Shown here: piece by piece, positions 3,518 to 47,844 of the stretch
How positions within the stretch are numbered: position 1 is the stretch's first letter
Layout of the letters: each line of letters starts with the position of its first letter
Source of the DNA: Vermamoeba vermiformis
Taxonomy: Eukaryota
Length of the DNA: 64,000 bases
Reading direction: 5' to 3'
Assembly: GCA_045837725.1 (NCBI GenBank)
Contig: JBEWZL010000184.1
Location: forward strand, 62,001 to 126,000
Made by a program: the position numbers and the translations under genes
The notes under the pieces: model-generated
Seen by the model: the letters and a program-made list of their open reading frames with translations, nothing else
The model's database searches: none
What the model was told of the DNA's origin: nothing

Positions 3518-6500
3518 ATGGCACAGGGAGAACGCATTGAAGATCTATTAGAAAGCGTGGCCGATGCGGTCAGCGCTCTCGTGATGTTCTCAACAGAATC
3601 TGTGGAAAACAAACGCATGATGACTAATATTGCTAGTGGATCGAAAATCTTGAAGGAAGCTACAAATTTCTTGGTGGATTCTGCTGCAAAAACGACCAGT
3701 AAGTTTTATAATTTGAAATATTTTTAAAGTGACGCATTAAAATACGCTCGCCTTCAATTATTTATCAATAAGTGACTGTTATAATTGAATAATACTGCGT
3801 GCTAGTAGCATTTAAATAATTATTTCAAAAATGTTGAACGAAGAAAATCTTATCAAAATTGCTAGACAATTAAATCAAAATTTCTCTCGTCGAAAATTGG
3901 TGCGCTGTACATTCTAAATGAGAGAATAGTGCAATCTAACTGAAGATTATATCCACAAAAAATCTCGTACTTACAGATCTGTTTTCAGATGCGTGGAATA
4001 ACATTGGAAGTCCCGAAATGGCTGCCAAGATGCAAGAAGCAGGTTCTTTAATTGCCACGGCTACGCAAACTATTATCGATTCTGCTACCGAGTTGAGCGT
4101 CGATTTCTTCAAACAGTCTGCCAAGCAAGCAATCTTGGACGCAGGCAAGGACATTCTCAAGGGCACCGTGAGATTGCAACAGTTCTACGAATTATATGAG
4201 ATCGTCGTCATTTTGAGACAGGTAAGCTAATCCTAGAAGATGTGACAAGTCCTTATTCGTACTGTTCAGATTGAGATTTGCCGCATCAAGTTGACCTATG
4301 CACGCGAAGACACATTTGCAGTGGAAGAATTCTCATCAATTTTGTTCGTGTTGATTCGCATGCTCGAGCGCAGAGTGTTGCGTGTGCACGACACCAAGAT
4401 TAAAGATATGCTCGAACAGTCCGCCATGGAGATTGAAAAGACCATTGACCCATTGCGTCAAAATGTTCAAACTAAGCCTCAGGTACGTCTACAATTCCAA
4501 AGATGATTAGGCTAACACAGCACAGGACAACAAAACTAAGCAATTGCGCGAGTCAATCATCACAGCCTTGCAAGCAGCACTGAAGAAGGCTGAAGAGGCC
4601 ACCAAGCTGTCAGCCAAATCACCCTTCGACTTGAGCTTGTTGGACTCGCAAGTTAACCGCGGTGAAGTGTTCGAGGAAGAAGTAATTGCCTCACAAAGGT
4701 AAGGACACAATCGCAACTCGTTATTACACGTGCTCACCACTTACTACAGAGGATTGGAAGACCAAATCGAAGCTCTCAAGAAGGCCGTGCTGGGTGGTGA
4801 TGAACACGAAGTTGACAAAGTGTTGAGAGGTTTGCGCAAAGAAATTGAAGATCAATTAGAAGCAGCTGAAGAGAACGCCAAGGGCATTGCTGACCCTGCA
4901 CTTCGTGCCAAGTTGTTGGGCTCGGTTGATTTGTTGAAGAAGAAACTCCGTGACATGCTCGACAGAGTGGGCGATGCAGCACGCGAGTCTGCTCGCACTG
5001 GTAACTTGCAAGTTCTCGAGCCTATGCTCGCTGAGTTGATGAACGCTAGTGCTGCAGTCTTGACTCCTCGTGCTCGCAACAACGTCTTGCAACACGCTGC
5101 AAACATTGAAGACTTGCTCGATGAACTCGGCAGTGCTGCTGCCAAGGGCAACGGCAAGGGTGCTATTGACGCCGCCAAGGGCTTGAAGGCTGAGTTGTTG
5201 GAAATGTCTGAACTAGGCAAGATTCTCGCTCAAAACGTCGACGACGATCCTTTCAGAAAAAAGCGTTTGATGGAAGCTGCTGCTGAGTTGGCTGATTTGG
5301 GTGACATGTTGTCCAATGCCGCTGAGATCTTGGCCAAGAAAGGTGCCTCACCTGAATTGCTGAAGAAGCTTGCTGATATGATCAACCGTGTCAAGGGCGC
5401 CATGAAGAACTTGATCAATGCTGCCAGTCTCACCACTCCTCAAGAAATGCTCGAGAATGCCTCAGAAATCAACAAAGAACTCGACACATTGAAGACTAAT
5501 GCTGCAGACCCCAAGAAGAACGCTCAAGCAATCGTCAAGGGTATTGGCAGAGTCGGTGCACGTGTCAAGCCTCAAGTTGCTGTTGCCAATGCCTACGCTG
5601 AGCACGTCAATGACCCCGAGCAGAAGAAGAACATCACTGAAGCTGCTCAACAGTTGCAACAATCTGCCAGCGAATTAGCTCTTGCTGCTAAGGGTGCTAT
5701 TGGTGGTGCTTCAGAAGAGGCCAAAAAGAAGTTGTTGGCTGCCATTCAAAAGCTTCGTGATGCCAACGACCGATTATTGAACTCAGTCACTGATGCTCCT
5801 GATGAAGAAATGATGGCTCTTAAGGCACAAATTGCCGACGGTATTGAACGTGTCCACGCTGCTGTTGCTGCTGGTGACGTCAAAGCTGCCGCTGCTGCGT
5901 TGAGTGACTTGAAGGACAGTGTTAAGAAGCAAGTCTACTTGGCTCGCCTTGTTGCCGGTGGAATTGACGACCTTGAGCTCCGCAAAAAATTGCTGGACGC
6001 CTGTCTCGCTCTTGACAGTGGCATTCTCGACAACTTGTTGCCCGCTTTGCGAGGTGCCATGGAGAATCCCAATGACACTGCTGCTATTGTAAGTCTCTGA
6101 TATCCCGACAATAAGCATCTATTCTAACCTTTATGACTTCAGAAAAAATTGGACGACTTGTTGGGTGTTATTGATAAGAACACTTCTGCTTTGGTCACTC
6201 TGTCCAAGGAAGTCAGCCCCGAAGACAGCTTGGCTCAGAACGCCAAGAAGATGAACAAGACCATCGACAGAGCTTACCAAGCCATTCTCAAGCCAAGCGC
6301 CCCCGATGCCACAGCTGCCCTTAAAGAGGCTCGTGAGCAATTGGCTAAGCACAAGCAGTTGATCCAACTTGCTGTTGAGCGCACGACTGACCCGAAACAC
6401 GCTGATGCTTTGAACAATGCCATGGCTCAACTTGAAACTGACTTCCAGAATGTCGTTTTGGCTGCCAAGGAGAAGCTTACTAACCCTGCCACCCCTGACA

Positions 6501-7111
6501 GCAAGGTCACAGCCGCCGTAGATGCCTTCAAGAAACAAGCTACCTTGACTGGTCAATTGGCTCTCAAGCTGAAGCAAGTCCGTGCTGAAGCTGAAGAAGC
6601 CGAGAGATTGCGCCGATTGAAGGAAGAGGAGGAAATGAAGAACAAGGACGAGGTATACGCCGCCGCCCACACTGTCGAAAAGGTCGTTCAGCGCGTTCAA
6701 TTGGAGTTCCCTCACGACGGTTCACCCGCTGGTATGCTTGCCAAGGCCGCTAGTGAGATTGCACGCGCCATGAAGCTCTTGTCCGAAATTGCCAAGAAGG
6801 GCAACAAGAACGAGTTGATTATGAATGCCCGTGACATTGCCAACTACATTGCTGAAGTCGTCAAGTGGGCTAACAAGTGCGCTGAAGAGTGCTCAGATCC
6901 TCTCTTGGCTCGTGAGTTACGCGATGCTGCCAGTGTGGCCAAGAACTACAGTGTGCAATTGAAGATTCTGTGCGCTGTCAAGGCTGGTATGGATGCTGAT
7001 GATCCTACCGCCAAGAAATCGCTCGTTATTTGCGCTCAAGGTTTGGCTAAAGCTGTTGTGAACTGCGTCAACACGTCACAATTGGCCAAGTTGAAGAAGA
7101 AGCTTATTTAA
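3518..7111 (+). CDS. Vinculin/alpha-catenin family protein
   Basis: Ala-rich helical bundles; C-terminal vinculin-tail-like ELIMNARDIA...CSDPLLARELRDAASVAKNYSVQLKILCAVKA; 5 GT-AG introns. Confidence 0.85.
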
Positions 7112-8027: not shown

Positions 8028-10146
8028 ATGGGCGCAATTAGAGCAATAATTAGCCTCGCCTATCACGTGATTTATTTGGGTGTCACATTGGCACTTGCGA
8101 TATTGAAAGCAATTGTAGGCGAAACAAAAAAGGAAAGAATAATTATTTACACAAGGTAAACTTATTTACTAATTTATACAATACTAAATTTGACAATGCC
8201 ATCACTTCTAAAATTAATTTCGAATATTTCAATTTGTTGATGCTTTAATTACTCAATCAACCGCAGATACCCAGAGGCTGGTAATACTAAAAAACGAATG
8301 ATTCCTGGCTTAGGAGCAGAAGGTGCTGCCAAATTACAAAAAGAAATGACGGAGCACGTACTCAATGCCATGCGTTCTTTCAGAGCCCTGTCGGACATTG
8401 ACGTACAAGGTAATGACACTGAAGCCTCGGTGCCATGGTTACTAATGCCAGACTTCGTGTACCAGTCCACTTCAAAGGCGAGGGTTGTGCACGCATGAGC
8501 TCGTGGCTTGGAAATGACGTAACAATGGTCCCACAAGTTGAAGGCGACTTAGGGGTCAAGCTGATACACAGCGTTGCTTCTGCCTTTCGCGAGGGAGTCA
8601 AGTAAGTGCAGTCTACGAATGGCAGAACGATGCAGTCCCAATTCACCCAAAAACGGCGTTCAACCATCCGACATGGTGTAGGGGTTCAGCATATCCGCCT
8701 GTCACGCGGGTGACCCGGGTTCGATTCCCGGTGTTGGAGATTTCTTTTTTATTTTTGTCCCACTCCCTGCCCAAAGCGCGATGTAGCTGCTGTTTTAACC
8801 CCGCGTATTTATTTATTGTAGGAAAGTGATAATTATTGGTGGGGACATTCCGGACATCAAACCGAGATTAATGTTTGACGCGCTCGCTGCTCTGGACCAT
8901 GTTGACATGACTATTGGCCCCGCAGAGGACGGAGGTTATTATTTGATTGGCTTGCGATGGCGACAAGACTATGCACGCCAAGATAACAACCGCTGGACTG
9001 CGCTTTTCGAAGGAATTGATTGGGGCACTGAAGTTGTCTTCAGGTACACTTTACGTACAAATCCTAACAAGGCTATTTCGCTAATTGCTTGAGCGGTACA
9101 GGCAAACCACCGAAGCTGCAACTGCTGCACGCCTCACGTACCACGCAATTACGAAAATTGCTGATGTTGACAGACCCGAGGACTTGCACGTGTGGTAAGC
9201 ATAGCGCAATCAACCCTCCTTTATTAACACCGTACAGGAACAAAGCGCAAAAACGGATAACTGAACGGGTAAACTCCAACAAGATAAGCATTATCATTCC
9301 TACACTCAACGAGGAGCATAACTTGCCAAAAGTAAGCTACAATTACAATATTATGGAGTTCGACTAACAGCGCTGTTAGACGCTGGCAAGTCTACAAGGT
9401 GGAAATAACATCGAAGTGATTGTAGTTGACGGCGGCAGTACAGACAACACGGTCAGAATAGCAAAATCTTCATCGCTCGTCAATGCAGTAGGATTGACTC
9501 GTGGTGGACGCGCTAAACAGCTCAATGCTGGGGCTGCACAAGCAACAGGTACTAGTACCTGATCAGATTGTAGTGCGCATTTATCTGATACACCTCCACA
9601 GGGTCTATTTTACTGTTCTTACATGCTGACACGCTGCTTCCACTCGGGTACGACCACATGGTCCGAGCTGTTGTCACACATGACCGATGGCAAGGCCGCT
9701 GTGTTGGTGGTGCATTTGAGTTCAAATTGGACTGCGAGGACTCGTTGAGCATCAGGCTCATTGAAAACGTAGCCAACTGGCGCGCTAGAGAGTTGAAGGT
9801 ACGGTGTATTCTTTAAATCTGCAGAACGGTCTTTCACTTAGTTAATTAGTTACCCTACGGTGATCAAGCGCTGTTCATTCGACGAGATTCATTCGAACAG
9901 CTCGGCAGATTTCCAGAAGTGCCGCTGATGGACGACTACATTTTTGTAAGGAACTGGGCTCGTCGATTAGACTTGCACATCATCCACAGCCCTGCCATTA
10001 CTTCAGCACGACGATGGCAACGCGCAGGAGTGTGGCGCACAACGCTGTTAAATTGGCTCATCGTGCTAGCTTATCACGCGTACGTGCCAGTCGATGTGCT
10101 TGCCAAGGTCTATCGCGCAGTTGGTCGATTGTGCACCAAAAAATAA
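8028..10146 (+). CDS. Fused glycosyltransferase: TIGR04282/DUF2064-like domain plus TIGR04283-like GT2 domain
   Basis: Domain 1: RYPEAGNTKKRMIPGLG, QVEGDLG, IIGGDIP, IGPAEDGGYYLIGL, IDWGT, DVDRPEDL. Domain 2: ISIIIPTLNE, VVDGGSTD, GRAKQLNAGA, FLHADT, PYGDQALF, TSARRW. Confidence 0.85.
8667..8739 (+). tRNA. tRNA-Asp(GTC), located in intron 8602-8821 of the glycosyltransferase gene
   Basis: Acceptor stem TCCGACA/TGTTGGA; anticodon arm with CT-GTC-AC loop (GTC at 8701-8703); T arm CCGGG-TTCGATT-CCCGG; oligo-T run immediately downstream. Confidence 0.95.
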
Positions 10147-46171: not shown

Positions 46172-46479
46172 GTTGCTTATGATGCGCAGTGTATAATAAT
46201 TGACAACACTAACAGACAATAATAGGATGTTGTTGTCAGGGCCAGAAGAACTGAAAATCAAATTACGGAGCGCAGATCAGAAGAAGCTTCGATCGGAACT
46301 GCGAACACAGTCAGAACACGCACGAGCGAGAGACTAGGCGCACTTGTATATAGACGGATATGGAAGACTAGCGGTGTAGATTATCCTGGCAGCTGAAGCA
46401 AGTCAACTGCGATCAGATCTGGGTAAGTTATTTGATCCCCTTGCGAATAATCACACTTGGCCGCGTATAATTAGTCGCA

Positions 46480-46772
46480 TATTATTGTGATGAGCAGTAA
46501 AAGGTTCGAAGCACATTCCGCTGCAGATCTGCTACACACCACTAGCACGACAATAGAGAGCGCTTGATTAGCGTTATCAGTGCTCTAAAGGCGACTGCTG
46601 ACATTAACTGCAACACCGTGCAGCGCTGTGCCCTCTATAGCAGTCCTATGCATAGTGTAGGACTGTACTGTGATAGCGCAGTGCTGCTGAGCACATCCAC
46701 TGCTCTGTTGCGACATGCAGATCTGCTGCTGAGTGCGCGCAACTGTGTGAAATACATCGTACTGATATAATA
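46480..46772 (+). ncRNA. Composite box C/D-H/ACA guide RNA (scaRNA-like) predicted to modify U5 snRNA loop I
   Basis: C box GTGATGA 46487, D'-like TCGA 46506, hairpin-H box ACATTA 46601-hairpin-ACA 46713, D box CTGA 46762, terminal stem TATTAT/ATAATA; both guides match U5 GCCUUUUAC. Confidence 0.85.
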
Positions 46773-46894
46773 CTCGATCAATAGCACTGCAGTACTGTAG
46801 TAATCGAGCTTTATTTACATTAACAATCGAAATTGAATCAGATCCAACCTCGATCCAGCGCTTTATGTACAAGAAGAGAATAACGGTGTCATAT

Positions 46895-47450
46895 TCACCA
46901 GTCCCCTATAATACTTGGTGTAGTAGCACTGCCCTCTAATAGCACTGTCTTGCCGTCTAAGCGCTGTGGCTGCAGATCGAGATGTGGTACGTGATTGATG
47001 TCTTCTTCAATAGGCTGCCAGCCTACATAAATAATTAACTATTTAATATTACAATACTAGGGCAATGAGTAGTACCTTCTGGGGGTGAGGGCGGTGGTGA
47101 CAACAAGAAATTACGCTCCAACTGCGGTACGGACAAGATGTGGTGCTGCAATGTGTCGTCATCCACTGGCTACAATACGCACATAATTAATATGAATTTA
47201 TGCCGTGCCACAACGCAGTCCGTACCTTGGTGTAGACGAGATCCTCCTCCACCAAACACTCCCTAGCCCGACACGCGGCACTCTCCAGCGCGTACACAAC
47301 CAGTGCGACATTGCAGTGCGGCACACAACGCACCAATCGCAGTGCGCCGTGGGGCTCGAACAGTGCGCGCAGTGTCGACTCGCTGCGTCCGTGCAGTCCG
47401 CGCAGCAGCAGTGTGTTGCTGTGTGTGTAGTGCTCTGTGGGGTGCTGCAT
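46895..47450 (-). CDS. RCAN: Calcipressin (regulator of calcineurin)
   Basis: RRM-like N-terminus, RNFLLSPPPSPPEGWQP signature, PSII near the C-terminus. Confidence 0.87.
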
Positions 47451-47844
47451 AGTAAATAAATATTTATTGCGTGGTGTATTGCATCTAATGGTGTTGGAAG
47501 TGTTCTGAATCTGAGCTGGCAGTCAGGCTTGTCACTGCAGTTTCCTTATTAGGCAATTCTGCTCTTCTCTCGGCTAGTTCATGCGCGGTGCTGTCATTGT
47601 CATGCGTGCTGCACACTGCGCACTAGCAAGCTGAAGGTGGTGTAAATCCACTCTTAATGTACCGTTGGATCAGCTTTTGCGCACCTGACGAGAGCTGCAA
47701 TACTACCAATGAGAGCGAGTAATGTTGGACAATGTGCTGTTACGCGACTAGTGTTCAATTGTAGTACGTTGTTCGCATCGATGAATGCGCGCCATTATTG
47801 TATTCATATTCAAATCCACAACAACACCACAACTCACCTGGTCA

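Follow-up and report, generated by a model that had tools for sequence, protein, structure and literature searches.

Does a protist use one RNA to guide two neighbouring modifications of the same spliceosomal loop? Loop I of the U5 small nuclear RNA (snRNA) keeps the exons in place at the spliceosome's catalytic centre; to our knowledge, its modifications have been described in hardly any organisms but animals, and the composite box C/D-H/ACA guide design has so far been described mainly in animals. The question is raised by positions 46480-46772 (+ strand) of a 64,000 nucleotide (nt) stretch of Vermamoeba vermiformis DNA (contig JBEWZL010000184.1, positions 62,001 to 126,000 of the forward strand), which as a whole is called the window here. 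An earlier, sequence-only reading of the window had proposed at this place a composite RNA with two guides to U5 loop I, one for 2'-O-methylation of the uridine equivalent to human U41 (Um41) and one for pseudouridylation of the equivalent of U43 (Psi43). The reading favoured here, with a probability of roughly 0.8, is that 46480-46772 is an intron-derived composite box C/D-H/ACA guide RNA resembling the small RNAs specific to Cajal bodies (scaRNAs), with U5 loop I as its predicted target. It draws on the sequence anatomy, the surrounding intron, the representation in RNA libraries and the conservation and covariation that were observed; by analogy, its architecture and mode of action would be those of a composite scaRNA of the U85/U87/U88 kind. 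What is new is the combination of predicted Um41 and Psi43 guides in one RNA, the occurrence of such a candidate in a protist, and its location in an intron of an apparently non-coding host gene.

The elements of the candidate RNA are the following, in window coordinates and with identities to L014, a diverged homologue from a metagenome scan that is described below:

46480-46772, + strand: predicted mature composite C/D-H/ACA RNA, 293 nt (homologue: L014 989-1251)
46480-46485 and 46767-46772, + strand: terminal stem UAUUAU/AUAAUA, 6/6 pairs, identical in L014
46487-46493, + strand: C box GUGAUGA (DNA GTGATGA), 7/7 identical in L014
46496-46505, + strand: D' guide AGUAAAAGGU (DNA AGTAAAAGGT), complement of U5 loop I, 10/10 identical in L014
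46506-46509, + strand: D'-like box UCGA, degenerate (CUGA expected), abutting the guide, 4/4 identical in L014
46514-46518 (CAUUC) with 46731-46735, + strand: internal stem closing the H/ACA domain, outer helix, 5 pairs intact and unchanged in L014
46523-46532 (GCAGAUCUGC) with 46717-46726, + strand: internal stem closing the H/ACA domain, inner helix, from the predicted fold, 2 compensatory changes
46544-46599, + strand: H/ACA hairpin 1, predicted fold, 3 compensatory pairs relative to L014
46544-46547 and 46596-46599, + strand: hairpin 1, lower stem
46548-46556 and 46587-46595, + strand: hairpin 1, predicted pocket, including UAG at 46554-46556 and AAAGGCGA at 46587-46594
46557-46564 and 46579-46586, + strand: hairpin 1, upper stem
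46566-46568 and 46576-46578, + strand: hairpin 1, apical stem, with loop UAGCGUU at 46569-46575
46601-46606, + strand: H box ACAUUA (ANANNA), 14 nt after the upper stem; ACAAUA in L014, 16 nt after
46610-46711, + strand: H/ACA hairpin 2, lower stem 46610-46615/46706-46711, long upper stem
46713-46715, + strand: ACA box, GACA 4/4 identical in L014 and at the same distance to the stem
46727-46732, + strand: C'-like box UGCUGA, degenerate, partly within the internal stem; AUUCGA at the aligned place in L014
46747-46761, + strand: D guide region, 10/15 identical in L014
46762-46765, + strand: D box CUGA, 4/4 identical in L014

When the window sequence was re-read from 46200 to 47000, every motif of the sequence-only reading was found at its coordinate. 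The marks of a box C/D RNA are present, namely RUGAUGA close to the 5' end and CUGA close to the 3' end, joined by the 6 bp terminal stem, and so is the box H/ACA layout of hairpin, hinge, hairpin and tail, with an ANANNA H box, an ACA box, and two lower stems that both covary. By the order of these elements, a single C/D RNA encloses the H/ACA domain, with the D' box before it and the C' box behind it. The ACA box is internal and not 3 nt from an end because the 3' half of the C/D domain comes after it, a construction that is usual for known composite scaRNAs. The inner closing helix is a self-complementary palindrome (DNA GCAGATCTGC) that is present twice, at 46523-46532 and 46717-46726. The internal closing stem and both hairpins already appear in a fold made without constraints; its minimum free energy is -109.4 kcal/mol (z = -3.9), and equal folding energy was reached by none of 200 shuffles. 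The combination of a C box with AGTAAAAGG within the next 1-4 nt has one occurrence in the window and none in 100 dinucleotide shuffles (0/100). The motifs taken singly are weak evidence: at least one copy of the 9-mer AGTAAAAGG was present in 36/100 shuffles, and AAAGGCGA has 4 matches against 1.97 expected.

The comparison with L014 bears on whether this anatomy has been maintained. A metagenome scan for the pattern C box, guide, gap and AAAGGCG returned 19 loci, one of which, L014, is a diverged syntenic homologue (local scores 28 and 32). On its minus strand it has the LSG1 start and an RCAN-like gene, on its plus strand a gene further downstream, and its splice sites are those of the window; the RNA (989-1251) measures 263 nt and lies in an intron at 942-1347. 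The other 18 of the 19 loci were rejected as chance matches, with local scores of 8-10 against a null mean of 8.9 and a null maximum of 13; these have no D box with a terminal stem, and no similarity outside the pattern. Identity between the window and L014 is 69% over the whole RNA, and is distributed unevenly: 88% in the 5' C/D part, 75% in hairpin 1 plus H box, 70% in the 3' C/D part, and 49% inside hairpin 2, with 56% in the intron flanks and 54% in the upstream region. Within hairpin 1, the 5' pocket strand CGACAAUAG (9/9), the 3' pocket AAAGGCG (7/7) and the apical loop UAGCGUU (7/7) are identical, and the H box is identical at 5/6 positions (ACAUUA versus ACAAUA) with ANANNA kept; the spacer between C box and guide is identical at 0/2.

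Paired positions were compared over the terminal stem, both internal helices, the three stems of hairpin 1 (lower, upper and apical) and, in hairpin 2, the lower stem. Among these 40 pairs, 33 are unchanged, 7 are compensatory double changes and none is broken. The compensatory pairs are spread over the internal closing stem (46531-46718 and 46532-46717), hairpin 1 (46544-46599, 46562-46581 and 46566-46578) and the hairpin 2 lower stem (46614-46707 and 46615-46706). Independently, RNAalifold on a MAFFT alignment predicted 58 pairs, 7 of which are changed on both sides. At the level of sequence, this pattern of conservation and covariation is as a structured guide RNA would predict.

A composite RNA of this kind should also be visible as a single unit in RNA libraries. 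The run search listed 24 runs, 20 of which hold part of the stretch, 7 of these being recorded as RNA; 4 of the 24 were aligned (X4, X6, X7 and X23). All three RNA contig runs, from three studies, contain a short contig lying wholly inside the predicted RNA:

46500-46751: RNA contig, run X4, study P2; nothing on the flanking exons
46542-46750: RNA contig, run X6, study P3; the spliced host form is also present
46497-46741: RNA contig, run X7, study P4; adaptor-like loose ends on both sides and nothing on the flanking exons

The unspliced intron flanks, 46423-46479 and 46773-46841, are uncovered in all three of these runs. Each contig is continuous from at or just past the D' guide, across the entire H/ACA domain and into the 3' C/D half, and this continuity across the C/D and H/ACA parts argues for one composite molecule. 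The composite architecture proposed earlier is thus borne out by its geometry, by covariation and by single contigs spanning 46497-46751. In 3/3 runs the contigs represent a unit shorter than the intron.

The intron itself is defined by a contig of run X6 in which 46421/2 is joined to 46841/2; the 419 nt left out have GT..AG ends on the + strand, which gives the following host features:

46423-46841, + strand: spliceosomal intron GTAAGT...CAG, 419 nt; both splice sites kept in L014 (intron 942-1347)
46381-46422, + strand: host exon, 3' part (the only part seen), up to the 5' splice site, from the X6 contig
46842-46900 and beyond, + strand: host exon 2, from the X6 contig; antisense to the RCAN-like gene at its 3' end

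The predicted RNA begins 57 nt past the 5' splice site and stops 69 nt short of the 3' splice site. No long open reading frame (ORF) crosses the exon-exon junction on a reading by eye of the sequence and the ORF list, and the host transcript therefore looks non-coding; it looks like a non-coding small nucleolar RNA (snoRNA) host gene. A guide RNA inside a non-coding host transcript is a gene arrangement typical of vertebrates. The earlier description of this place as a gap between LSG1 and RCAN with no credible ORF stands insofar as no long ORF crosses the junction, but the stretch proved to be an intron of a spliced + strand transcript. In run X6, differing letters number 0/209 in the RNA contig and 6/101 in the spliced host-exon contig, which suggests, provided that the two contigs stem from the same organism, that the RNA is under stronger constraint than the host exons.

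U5 loop I has a motif that is given as UGCCUUUUACY (PMC6679479), and within which GCCUUUUAC is described as invariant (PMC2784804). Against this generic motif, which serves for all pairings given here, the D' guide forms 10 pairs (9 Watson-Crick and one G-U), where a box C/D antisense element has at least 10 nt, and the fifth nucleotide upstream of the D' box, 46501, lies opposite U41 in human numbering. Similarly, the 3' pocket strand of hairpin 1 pairs with U5 36-42, with 6 Watson-Crick pairs on the invariant GCCUUU and one G-U or G-C pair, and the 5' pocket strand pairs with U5 45-46(-47). U43 and A44 stay free at the base of the upper stem (7+2 pairs), 14 nt from the H box in the window and 16 nt in L014. 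Both predicted pairings of the earlier reading therefore hold, with exact geometry and with conservation and covariation relative to L014. Human U5 carries both Um41 and Psi43, and Um41 is assigned to scaRNA5/6 (U87/U88) and Psi43 to ACA57 (PMC7960923, Table 1). The earlier statement that separate human RNAs guide these two marks agrees with that table.

The processing route, protein partners, U5 modifications and Cajal-body residence that we infer may be pictured as follows. The host transcript would be spliced, and the RNA would be trimmed from the excised intron to its kink-turn (K-turn)-forming C/D ends and the 6 bp terminal stem. The C/D half, bound by fibrillarin-type proteins, would pair AGUAAAAGGU with U5 loop I and methylate, at its 2'-O, the counterpart of human U41. 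Cbf5/dyskerin-type proteins would bind the two-hairpin H/ACA domain, which would clamp the same loop in its hairpin 1 pocket and isomerise the counterpart of human U43. Probably neither hairpin 2 nor the D guide has a conserved guide role. Hairpin 2 is read as structural because its stem-ACA spacing departs from the rule of 14-16 nt and its interior is diverged, and it would serve assembly and stability of the ribonucleoprotein (RNP).

Several points weigh against the favoured reading, and the first of these concern the data. The covariation sample is thin, consisting of two sequences only (the window and L014). The contigs give neither ends, strand nor level of an RNA, nor do they prove transcription. 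In the raw-read run X23 (complementary DNA, 46% read), there is a single read pair, which is one molecule and no measure of abundance. As computed from depth bins, both mates cover approximately 46480-46509 and then continue into unlike sequence; the pair would fit a 30 nt insert starting exactly at the predicted 5' end, and is given little weight. Run X7 carries G46661A (depth 17.3/17.3), by which the predicted C46645-G46661 pair in the upper stem of hairpin 2 becomes a C-A mismatch; this may be a strain variant, or possibly editing. A further adverse point is that the candidate RNA falls below the gathering score of every Rfam family. At gathering thresholds the Rfam scan has no match in the candidate RNA, the sole hit in the window being a transfer RNA (tRNA) elsewhere, and at E up to 10 there are three matches, all sub-threshold. 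The SCARNA6 model (U88, RF00478) scores 9.5 bits with an E value of 2.2, against a gathering score of 68, and its aligned part comprises the 5' C box, guide and terminal stem.

The other adverse points concern the guides, and it is these that feed the alternative that survives best, in which the composite RNA is real but just one of its two U5 guides is functional, or the guides are directed at a different RNA with the same short motif. All pairings were computed with a pan-eukaryotic loop I motif standing in for the host's own U5. The D' box UCGA and the C' box (UGCUGA in the window, AUUCGA in L014) are both degenerate, and a degenerate pair might cripple the D' guide. The D guide is poorly conserved (10/15 in L014). 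In hairpin 1, the 5' pocket strand is conserved over 9 nt and yet only 2-3 nt of it pair with the generic motif, so that the pocket is perhaps too short on this side; either the stem of the host U5 complements more of the strand, or the strand has another role. This alternative is nevertheless unlikely. Whereas the spacer (0/2), the D guide and hairpin 2's interior (49%) have drifted, the predicted guide elements are kept without change (10/10, 9/9 and 7/7), and both guides aim at sites that are modified in human U5 according to PMC7960923.

The H/ACA half invites a second alternative, namely that this is a box C/D RNA with a long structured insert that merely resembles H/ACA, and neither binds Cbf5 nor guides pseudouridylation. 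In its favour, no canonical pocket was found in the predicted fold of hairpin 2: counted on the predicted folds, its upper stem and the ACA box are 25 nt apart in the window and 19 nt apart in L014, where the rule is 14-16 nt. Additionally, the ACA box is not 3 nt from an end, and no Rfam H/ACA family matches the candidate RNA even at E up to 10. However, the H box remains ANANNA despite a substitution, GACA and its spacing are kept, both lower stems covary, and hairpin 1 offers a pocket with 14-16 nt geometry and a conserved U5 complement, which together make a mere lookalike very improbable. It is scarcely credible that the motifs came together by chance in an ordinary intron and that the RNA-library contigs are intron or lariat remnants or contaminating DNA, for although the short motifs are not rare singly (36/100 shuffles; 4 versus 1.97 expected) and contigs are no proof of transcription, the C box with guide is found in 0/100 shuffles, the conservation pattern and the 7 compensatory pairs argue for selection, and coverage in three runs ends inside the intron at the predicted RNA with silent flanks.

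If the favoured reading of a composite guide RNA is adopted, then the nearest counterparts are found among animal scaRNAs. Darzacq et al. (2002) reportedly described U87/U88 as an intron-encoded H/ACA domain nested in a C/D RNA. Like U87/U88 (SCARNA5/SCARNA6), the candidate RNA has the same Um41 guide in the same register (C box, 2 nt spacer, aGUAAAAGGU, D'), and the SCARNA6 (U88) consensus aligns C box, guide and D' to 46483-46511, at only 9.5 bits. Unlike U87/U88, it shows no sequence-family membership in RF00478 (9.5 versus 68 bits, only the ends being aligned), and its hairpin 1 bears a predicted Psi43 pocket, whereas no pseudouridine is assigned to U87/U88 in Table 1 of PMC7960923. The D guides differ as well, that of U87 being assigned to U4 Am65 in the same table and that of the candidate RNA being poorly conserved. 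The claim that the two guides form a new combination has consequently to be narrowed: a composite architecture for Um41 is not new, if the layout reported for U87/U88 is right, and it is the predicted Psi43 pocket in the same RNA that is new.

The closest functional analogue is U85 (SCARNA10), known from human and Drosophila, in which one RNA serves two neighbouring loop I marks. It was reportedly Jady and Kiss (2001) who described U85 as a composite C/D-H/ACA RNA. In contrast to U85, to which Cm45 and Psi46 of U5 are assigned (PMC7960923, Table 1), the positions predicted here are 41 and 43, and no sequence similarity to U85 was detected in the Rfam scan. The pseudouridine equivalent to that predicted for hairpin 1, Psi43 in human and Psi44 in the fly, is assigned to ACA57 (SCARNA11) and pugU5-44, respectively. 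Both are stand-alone H/ACA RNAs, as is also judged from their names, and are not nested in a C/D RNA. Drosophila has pugU5-44 as a separate RNA, and in the assay reported in PMC3884663 it did not modify U5.

Whether the likeness to U87/U88 reflects common descent is a separate matter. The guide is identical to that of U87/U88 because it is dictated by the target, and therefore is no evidence of common descent. The earlier proposal that composite scaRNAs reach deep into eukaryote history goes further than these comparisons do. That the candidate RNA is a true orthologue of vertebrate U87/U88, such that a C/D-H/ACA fusion for Um41 and Psi43 existed in an ancestor shared with animals, and animals later lost the pocket while Psi43 passed to ACA57, is doubtful on present comparisons, if by no means far-fetched. 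Were it true, composite scaRNAs, and by implication snRNA modification of the Cajal-body type, would be far older than the animal-centred literature suggests. In the literature searched, little is said of protist guide RNAs for snRNA modification, and a full-text search, made in an incomplete library and in main texts only, brought up no description of a composite scaRNA from a protist. For Dictyostelium, a 2022 study regards scaRNA function as no more than conceivable (PMC8817022), and plant scaRNAs are cited in PMC10473218. The locus would show the fused C/D-H/ACA design outside animals. It offers a concrete candidate, conserved and supported by RNA libraries, that predicts two specific marks on one loop, and it lets one ask directly whether the fusion is of ancient date or came about several times.

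Some smaller features of the RNA and its surroundings were also observed. The CAB (Cajal body) box has the consensus ugAG and is located in the apical loops of Cajal-body scaRNAs, which WDR79/TCAB1 binds. The hairpin 1 loop UAGCGUU contains uUAG, a CAB-like candidate that may be a localisation or protein-binding signal; the loop is identical in L014 (1075-1081) although its closing stem covaries (G-C to A-U). Five nucleotides 5' of the terminal stem, AUUAGU at 46470-46475 is identical in L014 (979-984) and is paired by RNAalifold with the D-box region, which could be an external processing stem or a coincidence. The last ~35 nt of the intron (46808-46841; L014 1312-1347) are kept at ~30/33, far above the remaining intron flank, and hold a branch-point-like UUAAC. 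On the minus strand, in the window only, an AATAAA at 46815-46810 could serve the 3' end of the RCAN-like gene.

LSG1 is a minus-strand gene starting near 46172 and divergent from the host transcript, which starts within the LSG1 divergent-promoter region. Short conserved blocks 5' of the host exon (46240-46340; L014 735-815), for instance CCAGAAGAACTGAAA and AGAAGCTTCGATCG, stand in an otherwise 54%-identical region and may be elements of a bidirectional promoter common to the host transcript and LSG1. On the other side, minus-strand ORFs at 47035-47522, whose last coding piece ends near 46895, are convergent with the host transcript and include an FLLSPPPSPP motif; from such motifs, we take them to be RCAN/calcipressin-like.

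The protein relatives of the window vary in their affinities. Close relatives are 88-99% identical. Named relatives of LSG1 are 34-56% identical and come from animals and fungi. An eIF4G-like ORF has a 93% match in a EukProt transcriptome, and among its best named hits Acanthamoeba, Physarum and Stereomyxa stand beside Chara and fishes; in a FastTree tree of 22 sequences chosen from 72 hits, which carries long-branch warnings, the eIF4G-like protein of the window is not grouped with amoebozoans. Talin and vinculin adhesion proteins are typical of Amorphea, and adjacent ORFs at 4703-7111 (+ strand) match the Talin IBS2B domain and the vinculin family. Taken by themselves, these proteins point to no more than a free-living microbial eukaryote outside animals, fungi and plants, which may be one of the Amorphea; given the mixed hits and the tree, an assignment to Amoebozoa was rejected. 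The only match in the window at an Rfam gathering score is a tRNA gene at 8667-8739 (+ strand), with 56.2 bits.
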